The translations under genes and the position numbers were made by a program. A stretch of DNA of 64,000 nt from Escherichia coli (GTDB lineage: Bacteria; Pseudomonadota; Gammaproteobacteria; Enterobacterales; Enterobacteriaceae): the NCBI RefSeq assembly GCF_030384885.1, contig NZ_CP128613.1; one strand, given 5' to 3'. The number at the start of each line of letters is the position of its first letter. Position 1 is the stretch's first letter. The notes below the pieces were generated by a model that saw only the letters and a list, made by a program, of their open reading frames with translations, made no database searches and was not told the origin of the DNA. Positions 4,776 through 59,765 of this stretch are shown here, in pieces.

Positions 4776-5021
4776 TATGTCGAAAAATGGACGGCGATGA
4801 TACATCTCCGTCCATTTACTCCTGAATACAGTAGTATTTTACAGACAAAAATACCGTATATGGATTATTCGTTTATAATCAGGATAATCTAATAAAAGGA
4901 CCCCTGAAAAAGTGGTTAACATGGAACAAATGAAAGTTACTCCTTCTGTAATTGTTATGTCTTATGGCCTCATCCCTTTTAGCCGGATACTGAAAAACAT
5001 CCTTCGAGAGGGACGGTTACC

Positions 5022-5735
5022 ATGAAGATTTTTTTGGAGAATCTTTATCGTTCTGATTGCTATTTCCTGCCGATAAGAGATAACCAGCAAGACCTTGTCG
5101 GCGTTGAGTTAATTACCCATTTCTCCAGTGAAGATGGTACGGTTCGTATACCGACGAGTCGGGTTATAGCGCAACTTACCGAGGAGCAACATTGGCAATT
5201 ATTTTCTGAGCAGTTGGAATTGCTAAAATCATGCCAACACTTTTTTATTCAACATAAACTCTTTGCCTGGCTTAATTTAACCCCACAAGTGGCTACTTTA
5301 TTATTAGACAGGGATAATTACGCGGGCGAACTATTAAAATATCCGTTTATTGAACTGTTGATTAATGAGAATTACCCGCATCTCGATGAAGGAAAAGATA
5401 ATCGCGATCTTTTGTCCTTATCGCAAATGTATCCCCTTGTGTTAGGTAATTTGGGCGCAGGCAATAGCACAATGAAAGCGGTTTTTGATGGTCTTTTCAC
5501 CCGCGTCATGCTGGATAAAAGTTTTATTCAGCAACAAATCACGCATCGCTCCTTCGAACCGTTTATTCGTGCGCTCCAGGCGCAAATTTCCCCATGTTGC
5601 AATTGCATCATCGCGGGGGGCATTGATACGCCAGAAATAATGGCACAGATTACCCCCTTTGATTTCCATGCTCTCCAGGGATGCCTGTGGCCTGCCGTTC
5701 CTGTAAATCAGATAACGACGTTGGTTCAGCGATAA
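5022..5735 (+). CDS. ydiV: Anti-FlhD4C2 factor, degenerate EAL-domain protein
   Basis: 237-aa ORF recognised as YdiV (MKIFLENLYRSDCYFLPIRDNQQDLVGVELITHF...); position after nlpC as in E. coli. Confidence 0.92.
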   Translation: MKIFLENLYRSDCYFLPIRDNQQDLVGVELITHFSSEDGTVRIPTSRVIAQLTEEQHWQLFSEQLELLKSCQHFFIQHKLFAWLNLTPQVATLLLDRDNYAGELLKYPFIELLINENYPHLDEGKDNRDLLSLSQMYPLVLGNLGAGNSTMKAVFDGLFTRVMLDKSFIQQQITHRSFEPFIRALQAQISPCCNCIIAGGIDTPEIMAQITPFDFHALQGCLWPAVPVNQITTLVQR

Positions 5736-5758: not shown

Positions 5759-7234
<1,476 letters not shown>

Positions 7235-7237
7235 AGG

Positions 7238-7429
7238 CTACTTGGTCAATAGCAGCTTGCCAGCCTGAGTTTTACGGAGCAGATATTCTTGCCCGTCATG
7301 ATCGATAATCAGTTTGCCATCCGGACCTAACAGTGTCTGGCTGGTAATTCGCCGAATGGGCTGCGGGGAGGCGGTCTTGTGATTGGCATCCGTTTCAGGC
7401 GTGAGTTTTCTGCTATCCGTATAACGCAT
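7238..7429 (-). CDS. ydiE: HemP/HmuP-like small protein
   Basis: 63-aa reading frame [63 protein letters not shown] (internal ATG of the 72-aa track ORF); Fur-box-like sequence just upstream. Confidence 0.8.
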
Positions 7430-7440
7430 AAAAATTAATA

Positions 7441-7471
7441 ATAATTGATATAACAATGATTCTTATTATCA
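7441..7471 (-). promoter_or_regulatory. Fur-box-like operator in ydiE promoter region
   Basis: ataattgatataacaatgattcttattatc: AT-rich dyad resembling Fur consensus GATAATGATAATCATTATC, 12-40 nt upstream of ydiE start. Confidence 0.5.
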
Positions 7472-7560
7472 ATATTCTGGCGGGCCAGAGCAAGCAGTAA
7501 TTTGTTGAGAAGACAACAAGTTGCGCAGAAATGCCCATTCCGTCAGGAATGGGCACGCAT

Positions 7561-8607
7561 TCAGAAGCGGGTATCAACCGCAGAGGCGAGTTTTTCGACC
7601 AGGCGTTCGGTATCTTCCCAGCCCAGACACGGGTCGGTAATCGATTGACCGTAAGTGAGCGGCTGACCGCCGACGATTTTTTGCGTTCCTTCGCGCAGGA
7701 AACTTTCCGCCATAATTCCAGCAATCGCCGTAGAGCCATTGCGGATTTGCTGACAAATATCCTCACAAACTTCTAACTGGCGACGATGCTGCTTCTGGCA
7801 GTTGCCGTGGCTGAAATCCACCACCAGATGTTCAGGTAAATCAAACTCGTGCAACGTATCGCAGGCAGCGGCGATATCATCCGCATGGTAATTCGGCTTT
7901 TTGCCGCCACGCATAATAATGTGGCCATACGGATTGCCGCTGGTCTGATAGATGGTCATCTGACCATTTTTGTCTGGCGAGAGGAACATATGGCTGGCGC
8001 GGGCTGCGCGGATAGCATCCACGGCAATCCGCGTGTTGCCATCGGTACCATTTTTAAAACCTACCGGACAGGAGAGTGCCGAAGCCATTTCACGGTGGAT
8101 CTGACTTTCGGTAGTACGTGCGCCAATCGCGCCCCAACTGATTAAATCAGCAATAAACTGACCGGTCACCATATCGAGGAACTCAGTCGCGGTAGGGACG
8201 CCCAGCTCATTGACCTGTAAAAGTAATTTGCGCGCCAGCTCCAGACCGTGATTTACCCGATAGCTGCCGTTTAAATCCGGATCGGAGATTAGCCCTTTCC
8301 AGCCGACTACAGTTCGTGGTTTTTCAAAATAGGTGCGCATTACGATTTCCAGCCGTGACTGGTACTGGTTGCGCAGCGACTGCAGACGGGTGGCGTACTC
8401 CATTGCAGCGGTGAGATCGTGGATCGAGCAGGGGCCAATAATGACCAACAGTCGCTTATCTTCACCATTCAGTATTTTTTCAATTCTGCGGCGGGAGTCG
8501 GTGACATGGGTGGCGACGCCAGGCGTTACGGGATACCGTAGCGCGAGTTCGGCGGGCGTTACCAGGCTCTCAATACGCGCAGTACGGAGTTCGTCAGTTC
8601 TGTTCAT
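7561..8607 (-). CDS. aroH: DAHP synthase, tryptophan-sensitive (3-deoxy-7-phosphoheptulonate synthase)
   Basis: 348-aa ORF MNRTDELRTARIESLVTPAELALRYPVT..., class I DAHP synthase; TrpR operator upstream. Confidence 0.96.
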   Translation of the reverse strand: MNRTDELRTARIESLVTPAELALRYPVTPGVATHVTDSRRRIEKILNGEDKRLLVIIGPCSIHDLTAAMEYATRLQSLRNQYQSRLEIVMRTYFEKPRTVVGWKGLISDPDLNGSYRVNHGLELARKLLLQVNELGVPTATEFLDMVTGQFIADLISWGAIGARTTESQIHREMASALSCPVGFKNGTDGNTRIAVDAIRAARASHMFLSPDKNGQMTIYQTSGNPYGHIIMRGGKKPNYHADDIAAACDTLHEFDLPEHLVVDFSHGNCQKQHRRQLEVCEDICQQIRNGSTAIAGIMAESFLREGTQKIVGGQPLTYGQSITDPCLGWEDTERLVEKLASAVDTRF

Positions 8608-26426: not shown

Positions 26427-26563
26427 CGTGTAATGGCTGCATGAAATAAACAATAAAATATAAATAACATTATCAGCCTGCTGACGGCTTGAAGAGAGTC
26501 ACAGTATCTTGTGCAACATTATTGGAAAGAGTGAGGGGCGAGGTAGCGAAGCGGAAAAATGTT

Positions 26564-26669
26564 AAAAAAAAGCCCATCGTGGGAGATGGGCAAAGACTAC
26601 ACACAGCAATTCGTTGTTTCACTCAGGGGATTTCCATGCTTATAAATCAATATGTTGATTTATAACCGT
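26564..26669 (-). ncRNA. rprA: RprA small regulatory RNA (RpoS translational activator)
   Basis: minus-strand sequence ACGGTTATAAATCAACATATTGATTTATAAGCATGGAAATCCCCTGAGTGAAACAACGAATTGCTGTGTGTAGTCTTTGCCCATCTCCCACGATGGGCTTTTTTTT matches RprA as I remember it, with terminal hairpin and U-tract; located in ydiL-ydiK intergenic region. Confidence 0.9.
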
Positions 26670-32259: not shown

Positions 32260-32360
32260 ACTATTCTTATCGCCCCTTCAAGAGCTAAGCCACTGTGAGT
32301 GCCGGAGATAAGCGCCGGATGGGGTAGAAACCCTTAAGCCTGTGATGCACAGACTTAAGG
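32260..32360 (+). ncRNA. rydB: Candidate RydB-like small RNA locus (boundaries approximate)
   Basis: ydiH-sufA intergenic region; 5' hairpin (gccgg-agataagc-gccgg) and terminator-like hairpin aaacccttaag-cctgtgatgcacaga-cttaagggttt followed by tcttatttct; RydB is known to map between ydiH and sufA, exact sequence not recalled. Confidence 0.45.
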
Positions 32361-32593
32361 GTTTTCTTATTTCTGAACGCTGCAATTTTTTACCTATCTC
32401 TTAAATAGTCATTTTCAATACAACTTTTTCTTTTTCATCACAGCCTTAATGCTCCTTAGATAATAATCATTATCTAACAATGAGATACCTAATTCTTAGC
32501 GTGCCTGTTAACCCACACATCAGGGTCTATGCTTATTAAAAGCAGGCAAAAAGCATGTTTTACGGTAAAGCCCCTGCGTTTGCTGGGTTGAAC

Positions 32594-32608
32594 TGATAAT
32601 CATTATCA
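32594..32608 (+). promoter_or_regulatory. Fur box in sufA promoter
   Basis: TGATAATCATTATCA, near-perfect Fur consensus core, about 45-60 nt upstream of sufA ATG. Confidence 0.75.
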
Positions 32609-32653
32609 CTAACATGCTGTTATACGCTGAAAGCGATGAAGTGAGGTAAATCG

Positions 32654-33022
32654 ATGGACATGCATTCAGGAACCTTTAATCCACAGGATTTCGCCTGGCA
32701 GGGCTTAACGCTGACACCTGCTGCCGCGGTCCACATCCGTGAGCTGGTGGCAAAGCAGCCGGGTATGGTAGGCGTGCGCTTAGGCGTGAAGCAAACGGGC
32801 TGCGCGGGCTTTGGCTATGTGCTCGACAGTGTTAGCGAGCCAGACAAAGACGATCTGCTGTTTGAACACGACGGCGCGAAGCTGTTTGTCCCGCTGCAAG
32901 CGATGCCGTTTATTGATGGCACGGAAGTCGATTTCGTTCGTGAAGGACTTAATCAGATATTCAAATTTCACAACCCTAAAGCCCAGAATGAATGTGGCTG
33001 TGGCGAAAGCTTTGGGGTATAG
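32654..33022 (+). CDS. sufA: Fe-S cluster A-type carrier
   Basis: 122-aa ORF with C-terminal CGCGESF motif. Confidence 0.96.
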
Positions 33023-46038: not shown

Positions 46039-46707
46039 ATGTCCTTCACTCGACGCAAATTTGTTCTGGGGATGGGAACAGTAATCTTTTTTACTGGTTC
46101 TGCGTCTTCTCTGTTAGCGAACACGAGGCAAGAAAAGGAAGTTCGGTATGCCATGATTCATGACGAGTCACGGTGCAATGGCTGTAATATTTGCGCCCGC
46201 GCATGCCGTAAAACTAACCACGTCCCCGCTCAGGGAAGCCGTTTATCGATAGCACACATACCGGTCACCGATAACGACAACGAAACGCAGTATCACTTTT
46301 TTCGCCAGTCATGCCAGCACTGTGAAGATGCTCCTTGCATCGACGTTTGCCCAACAGGAGCGTCATGGCGTGATATGCAGGGGATCGTGCGGGTAGAAAA
46401 ATCGCAGTGCATCGGCTGCAGTTATTGCATTGGCGCTTGCCCGTATCAGGTTCGCTACCTTAACCCTGTCACTAAAGTGGCAGATAAATGTGATTTCTGC
46501 GCTGAGTCCCGACTAGCAAAAGGCTTTCCGCCCATTTGCGTTAGCGCCTGCCCGGAACATGCATTGATCTTTGGTCGCGAAGATAGCCCAGAAATTCAAG
46601 CGTGGTTGCAAGAAAATAAATATTATCAATATCAGCTACCTGGTGCCGGGAAACCGCATCTGTATCGCCGATTCGGTCAACATTTGATTAAAAAGGAAAA
46701 TGTATGA
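46039..46707 (+). CDS. ydhX: Tat-exported 4x[4Fe-4S] ferredoxin-like subunit
   Basis: 222-aa frame with twin-arginine signal (SFTRRKFVLGMG) and four Cys clusters (CNGCNICARAC, CQHCEDAPCIDVCP, CIGCSYCIGACP, CDFC...CVSACP). Confidence 0.88.
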   Translation: MSFTRRKFVLGMGTVIFFTGSASSLLANTRQEKEVRYAMIHDESRCNGCNICARACRKTNHVPAQGSRLSIAHIPVTDNDNETQYHFFRQSCQHCEDAPCIDVCPTGASWRDMQGIVRVEKSQCIGCSYCIGACPYQVRYLNPVTKVADKCDFCAESRLAKGFPPICVSACPEHALIFGREDSPEIQAWLQENKYYQYQLPGAGKPHLYRRFGQHLIKKENV

Positions 46708-50049: not shown

Positions 50050-50355
50050 TCAGGCGAGTTTTGCCTGATTGATTTGACTCAGTGGCTCATTGACATCGAA
50101 AACTTTGGCGACAACTTCCTCAACGCCGAGATTTTTCAGTCGGGCAGTATGTTTTTCCAGATAGGCAAGGGCGCTTTTTTCATCAGTGAAAAGGTAGATC
50201 CCACCGGCTTCGTGGTTCTTTTCACTTTCTGTCCATACCTTCCACAGAAAACCAGGTTCCTGATTAATCGACTCAGCAAGCGGTTTAAGCTGCTCAGCCA
50301 TTGCGTCGCCAAATGGGCCATTAAAAGCAAAATGAAGTTGTAACAAAGTTGCCAT
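50050..50355 (-). CDS. ydhR: Small Dabb/antibiotic-biosynthesis-monooxygenase-like protein
   Basis: 101-aa ORF; terminator hairpin downstream (aagggcg-gttag-cgccctt). Confidence 0.85.
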
Positions 50356-50462
50356 AGCGATTCTCCTTCTGATAACGCATACGAAGACAGTGTAAATCTT
50401 TTAACGTATTGGATACAGAGAAGAAACAGAGGGAAAAAGGAGAAGACCAGATTAAGAAAATC

Positions 50463-50539
50463 TGGTGCGTCCGAGTGGACTCGAACCACCGACCCCCACC
50501 ATGTCAAGGTGGTGCTCTAACCAACTGAGCTACGGACGC
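50463..50539 (-). tRNA. valW: tRNA-Val (anticodon GAC)
   Basis: minus strand GCGTCCGTAGCTCAGTTGGTTAGAGCACCACCTTGACATGGTGGGGGTCGGTGGTTCGAGTCCACTCGGACGCACCA: 77 nt, cloverleaf-compatible, encoded CCA; copy assignment valV vs valW inferred from gene order. Confidence 0.95.
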
Positions 50540-50543
50540 AGGA

Positions 50544-50620
50544 TGGTGCGTTCAATTGGACTCGAACCAACGACCCCCACCATGTCAAGGTGGTGCTCTA
50601 ACCAACTGAGCTATGAACGC
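50544..50620 (-). tRNA. valV: tRNA-Val (anticodon GAC)
   Basis: minus strand GCGTTCATAGCTCAGTTGGTTAGAGCACCACCTTGACATGGTGGGGGTCGTTGGTTCGAGTCCAATTGAACGCACCA: 77 nt, differs from its neighbour in acceptor and T stems; 4-nt spacer. Confidence 0.95.
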
Positions 50621-59212: not shown

Positions 59213-59253
59213 TCCATTTCACTCCAGACCCTAACTTCAGCTCCTGCAAAATC

Positions 59254-59274
59254 GCAAGGTAAACGTTTGCCTTT
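59254..59274 (-). promoter_or_regulatory. PUR-box-like operator in purR leader
   Basis: minus strand AAGGCAAACGTTTACCTTGC, about 45-60 nt upstream of purR ATG. Confidence 0.6.
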
Positions 59275-59510
59275 ACACACCTTACGCACAACAAAAGTGT
59301 TGCGGTACGCCGGAAAAACGACACGGAGCGTCAGGAAGGGGTCAATGGCCAGTACGCAAATAGTGTAAGCGTGGAATTTTGGCCGATCTTGACGAAAAGG
59401 GGAAGTGGTAAAAACACTTATCATTATAAATGACGGGAGATTTTTTCATCACAGTGTGTAAAAATGCGTAATATCACTTTTTGTGTGGTAATAAAAAAGG
59501 AGAAAACTTG

Positions 59511-59600
59511 ATGAGCACCGACCTTAAATTTTCACTGGTAACAACGATTATCGTCCTCGGTTTGATCGTAGCCGTGGGTTTGACTGCCGCGCTGCACTGA
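59511..59600 (+). CDS. ynhF: 29-aa single-TM small membrane protein
   Basis: ATG preceded by AGGAG SD (aaaaaaggagaaaacttg ATG); encodes MSTDLKFSLVTTIIVLGLIVAVGLTAALH; below the size cut-off of the supplied ORF track. Confidence 0.75.
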   Translation: MSTDLKFSLVTTIIVLGLIVAVGLTAALH

Positions 59601-59765
59601 TTTCCTCTCGAGGGAGCGCGTTCTCCCTCGCATCTCCTTCCTGTTTGTTAGCAAAATGGCAAAAGTGTTTTCTCTTTTTGTTATTTTCATTTTTTTGTGA
59701 TTGCTGTCATGCTTTCGCCACTTTAATGAATATCGCGTAATGACGCGAAGAGGTGGAGATAAGGC

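Follow-up and report, generated by a model that had tools for sequence, protein, structure and literature searches.

HemP, HmuP and ChuP are small haem-binding proteins that act as positive regulators of TonB-dependent receptor genes (PMC9131926). In Ensifer and Chromobacterium their action is thought to proceed via a GCCAGCC-rich HmuP-responsive element (HPRE) in the 5' UTR of the receptor gene, and ChuP controls also a siderophore receptor that is encoded elsewhere in the genome (PMC9131926). YdiE of Escherichia coli resembles HemP of Burkholderia multivorans, HmuP of Bradyrhizobium and Ensifer and ChuP of Chromobacterium (PMC9131926) in its Pfam family, its size and the Fur/iron control of its gene; those proteins are encoded beside the receptor they act on, and ydiE stands beside no such target. 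A search of the literature for haem, RNA or DNA binding by YdiE, or for any assigned function, found none.

The control of ydiE by Fur is well documented. Its Fur site was predicted earlier by two independent studies (PMC3136457). In the Fur ChIP-exo and Δfur RNA-seq analysis of nine E. coli strains by Gao et al. in 2023, ydiE was among the 36 core Fur-regulon genes (PMC10164565). ChIP-exo Fur peaks for ydiE were reported in MG1655 and W3110, and the W3110 peak (1791295-1791307) was listed as intergenic with mode 'R', i.e. repressor (PMC10164565, supplementary file 3). Upon deletion of fur, the log2 fold change of ydiE was +2.87 in MG1655 and +8.14 in W3110, and lay between +2.2 and +8.1 in eight of the nine strains. 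The exception was BL21(DE3), with a log2 value of –1.10; ydiE was the sole core Fur-regulon gene going down in this strain, which was flagged by the authors with no explanation (PMC10164565). In a Salmonella fur mutant ydiE (STM1346) was up 7.4-fold, and both the Fur site and the homology to HemP were remarked on by the authors; use of host haem by Salmonella is not known (PMC3212961). It was also reported that ydiE is induced by iron restriction in egg white in an Fe-Fur dependent manner (PMC5428311), and that it is induced in uropathogenic E. coli during infection (PMC9239202). Given this in vivo binding and expression, the Fur site and its interpretation were already known.

The site analysed here lies in a stretch of 64,000 nucleotides of E. 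coli DNA, the whole of which is referred to as the window. Of 5426 complete E. coli genomes, 5422 contain the 421 bases around the site, and the match to strain 2013C-4282, onto whose annotation the window maps one-to-one, is 100%. The window is ordinary E. coli core chromosome. Rfam matches at gathering score were obtained at 1734-1892, 26562-26669, 50339-50620 and 59213-59603 (STnc540, RprA, two tRNA-Val and STnc550), all of which are expected in this region of E. coli; the antisense family HPnc0260 overlaps the two tRNA-Val genes, and STnc550 lies upstream of cydH/ydhP.

In the mapped annotation ydiE (hemP in PGAP) occupies 7238..7429 on the minus strand and encodes a protein of 63 aa of the HemP/HmuP family. 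Its upstream neighbour is aroH (7561..8607, minus strand; Pfam DAHP synthase), past which come ppsR (minus strand) and then ppsA (plus strand). The downstream neighbour is the convergent selO (ydiU; 5798..7234, plus strand; Pfam SelO), and ydiV lies at 5022-5735 on the plus strand. Only 3 nt (7235..7237) separate the two convergent stop codons, that of selO at 7232-7234 and that of ydiE at 7238-7240. An earlier note on this DNA had placed an AT-rich, Fur-box-like dyad upstream of a HemP-like ydiE and downstream of aroH, which is correct when read on the minus strand (ydiE, 7429..7238). The assignment to the HemP family was borne out as well: residues 27-63 of YdiE matched Pfam PF10636 with 55.9 bits (gathering cut-off 25; E = 3.7e-15). 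Crystallography has yielded the structure of E. coli YdiE (PDB 4YNX); 2LOJ is the Salmonella orthologue and 2JRA a relative. As the note had also said, the arrangement is that of an orphan with no haem transporter in the locus, and no operon of TonB receptor, HemS and ABC transporter genes headed by hemP was found in the window, the convergent selO following 3 nt past ydiE.

Inspection of the dyad, quoted in the earlier note as 7441-7471 on the plus strand, showed both a Fur match and real dyad symmetry. The core 19-bp Fur box, in the ydiE sense strand, is GATAATAAGAATCATTGTT (7470..7452, minus strand). It agrees with the consensus GATAATGATAATCATTATC at 15 of 19 positions, and with these 4 mismatches it is the best 19-mer of the site; the ydiE ATG (7429) follows after 22 nt, and the aroH stop codon precedes it by 91 nt. 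A Fur box is recognised by the 19-bp GATAATGATAATCATTATC or by an array of NATWAT hexamers, and the 19-bp form is found at 7470..7452. Overlapping matches with 5 mismatches, shifted by 6 nt (7476..7458) and on the opposite strand (7452-7470, plus strand), stretch the operator to about 7444-7476. The interval of the earlier note contained the whole 19-mer but lay a few bases closer to ydiE than the best operator does. This extended AT-rich operator (7444..7476) is made up of the overlapping 6-nt-shifted matches and of ATTGATA/TATCAAT dyads (inverted repeats I1, I3 and I5), and its length is enough for two overlapping Fur dimers. Complementarity is 100% between the ATTGATA/TATCAAT arms at 7444-7450/7467-7473 and 86% between arms of 14 nt at 7431-7444/7463-7476.

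W3110 and the window are identical across the box, and transfer of the published W3110 peak placed it at 7449..7461 of the window. Reading of the W3110 record sequence showed that the peak spans the right half of the box, AATCATTGTTATA. The site is the same locus with the same sequence as the ydiE Fur site described in E. coli (PMC10164565) and Salmonella (STM1346, PMC3212961). Compared with K-12, the operator of the window strain is unchanged and a few bases of the promoter spacer differ (tggcccgccag vs tggtcagccat). A second Fur ChIP-exo peak of W3110, listed as 'ydiU, ydiV, intragenic' (1793696-1793708; PMC10164565), corresponds by coordinate transfer to about 5048-5060 of the window and falls just inside the ydiV start, where the nearby consensus is weak (6 mismatches, at 5037-5055 and 4986-5004).

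In the whole 64 kb, Fur consensus matches with ≤4 mismatches numbered five, at three loci, against 0.19 expected from dinucleotide shuffles of the window. The strongest cluster of the window was observed at 32589-32613, with 3-4 mismatches in matches that overlap on the two strands; sufA (32654-33022) begins 40-65 nt downstream of it. sufA is a known Fur target with a ChIP-exo peak (PMC10164565), and because its cluster is among the three matching loci it serves as a positive control. The sufA box is like the ydiE box in consensus quality (3-4 mismatches), in its position just upstream of the gene and in its ChIP-exo peak, but it belongs to a different operon, and sufA is further controlled by regulators other than Fur. 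The sRNA gene rydB (32272-32332) is located near this cluster. Elsewhere in the window, the Fur-box-like 19-mer GATATTGATAATATTTATT (46615-46633, 4 mismatches) lies inside the 3' end of ydhX, ~70 nt before phsC/ydhU; ydhV and ydhY of the same operon belong to the Fur-2 iModulon (PMC10164565).

The aroH-ydiE spacer is 131 bp long. In the sense direction it contains a hairpin, a moderately conserved stretch ending in CTTGCTC, 17 variable nt, GATAATAAGAATCATTGTT, 22 AT-rich bases and the ATG, which has no Shine-Dalgarno sequence upstream. Hexamer pairs were scored by hand, and the best sigma-70 pair in the spacer (8/12) was TTGCTC/17 nt/GATAAT. The candidate –10 hexamer GATAAT (7465..7470, minus strand) is inside the Fur box and present in all loci, and the conserved candidate –35 hexamer TTGCTC (7488..7493, minus strand) lies exactly 17 nt upstream of it. 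A generic promoter and terminator scan of 7200-7700 gave no matches, since the –35 element fits at only 3 of 6 positions, which is too weak for the threshold. The spacer also contains the pair ATAAGA/17 nt/TATTAT, which would start transcription almost at the ATG and give a nearly leaderless mRNA; with this pair the Fur box would cover the –35 element and the spacer. In the most economical model the Fur box would contain the –10 element and transcription would start near 7458; under either pair the Fur box would sit on the candidate core promoter. This agrees with the earlier note, which had the dyad overlap the likely ydiE promoter: it overlaps the best candidate hexamer pair. A literature search on start-site mapping in E. 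coli returned no experimental ydiE transcription start site.

Just past the aroH stop codon, a perfect 10-bp stem with a 4-nt loop (7532..7555, minus strand; repeat I2) has a stem that is conserved across genera. It is probably the aroH terminator, insulating ydiE from aroH transcription. aroH did not rise alongside ydiE in Δfur strains (PMC10164565). At the other end of ydiE, an RNA stem-loop at 7207-7276 on the minus strand (GGCUGG..AGCUGCU / AGCAGCU..CCAGCC) encloses the convergent stop codons of ydiE and selO. It has a folding energy of –22.3 kcal/mol with a z-score of only –1.9, and no U-run follows it. Examination of this stem-loop revealed no obvious intrinsic terminator of ydiE, so derepressed transcription may run antisense into selO.

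On this arrangement, Fe2+-Fur dimers would occupy ~30 bp (7444-7476) when iron is plentiful, and the bound Fur would cover the –10 GATAAT and the likely start near 7458, so that RNA polymerase would be excluded. When iron is scarce, Fur would leave and the 63-aa HemP-family YdiE would be made. Fur binding and repression at ydiE are published, and the geometry of promoter occlusion is deduced from sequence and conservation. Iron repression through Fur, the expectation of the earlier note, agrees with the ChIP-exo peak and the Δfur rises in E. coli (PMC10164565) and with the 7.4-fold rise in Salmonella (PMC3212961); a lack of iron or Fur dependence, which the note had named as the result that would speak against it, was thus already contradicted in published work on both organisms. 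What the note missed is that the site is known at textbook level, and why the gene is an orphan.

Conservation was scanned with one genome per species. Escherichia, Salmonella and Citrobacter contributed 13 loci, of which 12 could be used. The order ppsR-aroH-ydiE-selO was found in all 12 usable loci, with ydiV as well in 11. In the upstream alignment the mean column identity is 61%, yet TTGATAATAA-N-AATCATTGT is invariant in the 13 orphan loci, a block of 21 bp that stays unchanged across the three genera while its flanks vary. CTTG is also invariant and the next C nearly so, and TTGC/TTGT lies exactly 17 nt upstream of GATAAT in 16 of 16 full-length loci. The site is recognisably orthologous in the four operon loci described below, which bring the comparison of the box to 17 loci of Escherichia, Salmonella, Citrobacter and Enterobacter. 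A contig assigned to 'Streptomyces sp. NTH33' (NZ_POTZ01001146.1, L003; 417 bp, coverage 0.8) encodes YdiE and the SelO C-terminus with 96-98% amino-acid identity to E. coli; contaminating E. coli DNA in a Streptomyces assembly is almost certainly its source.

A HMMER search of the full database gave 300 relatives of HemP, and the contexts of the closest ones outside the ydiE group were inspected. In Enterobacter sp. BIGb0383 the order is ppsA-ppsR-aroH-hemP, followed by genes for a TonB receptor, HemS/ChuX, a periplasmic binding protein, a FecCD permease and an ABC ATPase, and then by the convergent selO. E. bugandensis has aroH-hemPRSTUV, and ppsA-ppsR-aroH-hemPRSTUV-selO-ydiV was found both in Citrobacter freundii and in a contig that carries the HemP protein assigned by its sources to Lelliottia amnigena. 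A complete hemP-hemR-hemS-hemT-hemU-hemV is thus present in the slot between aroH and selO (or a replacement of selO) in C. freundii, Lelliottia and Enterobacter. The place of the 3-nt ydiE-selO spacer of E. coli is taken by hemR-hemS-hemT-hemU-hemV (~5.7 kb) in C. freundii, Lelliottia and BIGb0383. Among the other HemP homologues, five of seven informative contexts were haem operons headed by hemP.

The promoters of these operons align with the ydiE promoter, with a CTTGCC candidate –35 element, equal spacing and the Fur box GATAATGATTATCATTGTT. Features common to the window and the hemPRSTUV/hmuP'RSTUV operons, known from Yersinia and found here in C. freundii, Lelliottia and Enterobacter, are hemP as first gene, the chromosomal slot, the candidate –35 element, the 17-nt spacing and a Fur box over the candidate –10 hexamer. 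The window differs from these operons in having no hemR, hemS, hemT, hemU and hemV, no HPRE-like hemP-hemR spacer, and the Fur box GATAATAAGAATC where the operons have GATAATGATTATC. The same split was seen across the loci, where the orphan boxes read GATAATAA-N-AATC and those of the operons GATAATGATTATC. The proteins divide likewise. All orphan YdiE proteins (loci L002-L014; Escherichia, Salmonella and five Citrobacter lineages) have GK, IIDH, LLRKT and KLLLTK, whereas all operon-linked HemP proteins (L019, L021, L029, L018 and L024) have GR, IIEH, LLR[RQ]T and KLILTK; the residues GK, IIDH, RKT and LLLTK are thus specific to the orphans. Because GR, IIEH and LILTK of the operon type occur also in a distant outgroup operon, the orphan state was taken as derived.

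The flanks of the C. freundii operon are closer to those of other Citrobacter, Salmonella and Escherichia (AroH 92-96%, SelO 82-84%) than to those of Enterobacter (AroH 84-89%, SelO 73%). Being nearest to the orphan-bearing group, they indicate that a lineage within this group still holds the operon. These comparisons give good support to the inference that ydiE and its Fur operator remain from a hemPRSTUV operon that lost ~5.7 kb. Escherichia, Salmonella and several Citrobacter lineages would have lost the transport genes and kept hemP (ydiE) with its operator; with the transport genes gone from the slot, only 3 nt now separate the stop codons of ydiE and selO. For the reading as a whole, namely that the dyad is a genuine Fur operator of the ydiE promoter and that promoter and operator are orthologous to those of the hemPRSTUV operon whose transport genes were lost, we estimate a probability of about 0.9.

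The ydiE-selO spacers are of 3 nt in E. coli and of 2-7 nt in several Citrobacter. Longer ones occur in C. sedlakii (45 nt) and in Salmonella, where the 36 nt include a hairpin. The spacers differ by lineage, yet the orphan residues are shared; the operon may have been lost once or several times. Likewise, the orphan-type residues and Fur boxes, set against the grouping of the C. freundii flanks, may reflect one loss that then spread, or convergence. The 3-nt spacer of E. coli holds no remnants of the deleted operon. In the 36-nt spacer of Salmonella (L008 6193-6228) the hairpin is formed by GCCAGCAGA/TCTGCTGGC. This spacer starts with CGCCAGC, like the start of the HPRE, and holds ACGATTCT, which is like the 3' end of C. 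freundii hemV, in the right order relative to CGCCAGC. These matches may be scars of the deletion end-points, although they are too short to be more than suggestive.

Other readings of the site have to be weighed against this one. An AT-rich dyad in a promoter-like spacer could match the Fur consensus by chance and serve no specific regulator. The core is 84% A+T, and Fur-like words are commoner there than window-wide; shuffling of the core alone therefore lifts the probability of a Fur match from P = 0.0012, obtained by shuffling the 131-bp spacer, to P = 0.009. Even at the composition of the core, P is still 0.009, the 21-bp block is invariant over three genera between variable flanks, and the ChIP-exo peak on the site together with Fur-dependent expression refutes this reading in vivo. 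Chance is an unlikely source of the match, and the reading as a whole can practically be dismissed. The dyad might instead serve chiefly for H-NS, OmpR, the Rcs system or some other regulator, with Fur in a secondary role. Rcs control of Salmonella ydiE has been published, as listed by Troxell et al. (PMC3212961), OmpR regulates Yersinia hemR genes according to the title of PMC6158557, and the BL21 anomaly suggests additional inputs. The conserved block is, however, precisely the Fur consensus and not generic AT-rich DNA, and the effect of Fur is large, reaching 8 log2 units (PMC10164565), which makes a secondary role for Fur very improbable.

It could further be argued that Fur still binds, but that ydiE and its box are inert leftovers of the deleted haem operon and the protein is functionless. 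The transport genes are indeed gone, the reported lack of host-haem use in Salmonella (PMC3212961) is compatible with such a state, and the literature found assigns no function to YdiE. Against it stands the selection acting on the gene. Between the window and its Salmonella or Citrobacter orthologues, dN/dS over the C-terminal 38 codons of ydiE, which cover the HemP domain, was 0.02-0.05, with synonymous sites near or at saturation, and 5422 of 5426 E. coli genomes have the ORF intact. ydiE is under strong purifying selection and is not decaying. The operator and the promoter spacing are invariant as well, whereas an inert relic would have decayed. We consider inert leftovers unlikely; given the low dN/dS and the invariant operator, YdiE must still act under iron limitation.

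If ydiE is the selected remainder of a haem operon, a target elsewhere in the genome may be considered. The haem receptor gene chuA is present in 2251 of 5426 E. coli genomes (41%), at a locus other than that of ydiE; no hemP gene is annotated in this chu locus. A sequence resembling the HPRE, CGCCAGCCACCCAGG...AGGCAGCCAGCG, was seen between hemP and hemR in Enterobacter and C. freundii. It was found that the chuA 5' UTR carries CGCCAGCCACCC...AGGCAGCCAGC (also written CGCCAGCCACCC...GGCAGCCAGC), both blocks of which are invariant relative to the Enterobacter hemP-hemR spacers. In strain PS10-3 (L028 6841-6878) the element reads CGCCAGCCACCCCGG...CCCAGGCAGCCAGC and lies ~30-70 nt upstream of the chuA ATG. 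The published FourU thermometer follows it directly; the authors of that work gave no explanation for the remaining chuA UTR (PMC3660397). In the window the HPRE-like pattern GCCAGCC-N10-30-CAGCCAGC gave no match. A 45-aa ORF in the chuA 5' UTR (L028 6647-6784), behind the chuA Fur box, was considered as a degenerate or second hemP and rejected, since Pfam gave no match at E ≤ 10 and tblastn against three HemP proteins showed no similarity.

YdiE is the only HemP-family protein found that chu-positive E. coli could use on the chuA element. It might thus be a relocated regulator that acts in trans on this element in chu/shu strains (41% of E. coli, and Shigella), and on another iron-limitation target in chu-negative E. 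coli and in Salmonella. We put this forward tentatively, with the odds against it, and the action on the chuA element is speculative. Among the literature matches listed, none names ydiE together with chuA, shuA, hemR or hmuR. Because ydiE is equally conserved in the ~58% of E. coli without chuA and in Salmonella, chuA cannot be its only role. Another iron-limitation target would fit the GK, IIDH, RKT and LLLTK residues that the orphans share and their very low dN/dS.

The Fur site itself adds nothing to what was known: ydiE was predicted as a Fur target as early as 2001, its regulation by iron and Fur was known from 2003 on, and ChIP-exo has now confirmed it as a core member of the E. coli Fur regulon. 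What is added here is an evolutionary reason for the orphan state, the probable loss of hemRSTUV from a conserved slot between aroH and selO, together with the finding that the leftover ydiE is still under selection, and a testable idea for a protein annotated without a function. YdiE is induced in every E. coli in iron starvation and in urinary-tract infection, and the ydiE promoter, being compact, invariant and Fur-controlled, could serve as a reporter.
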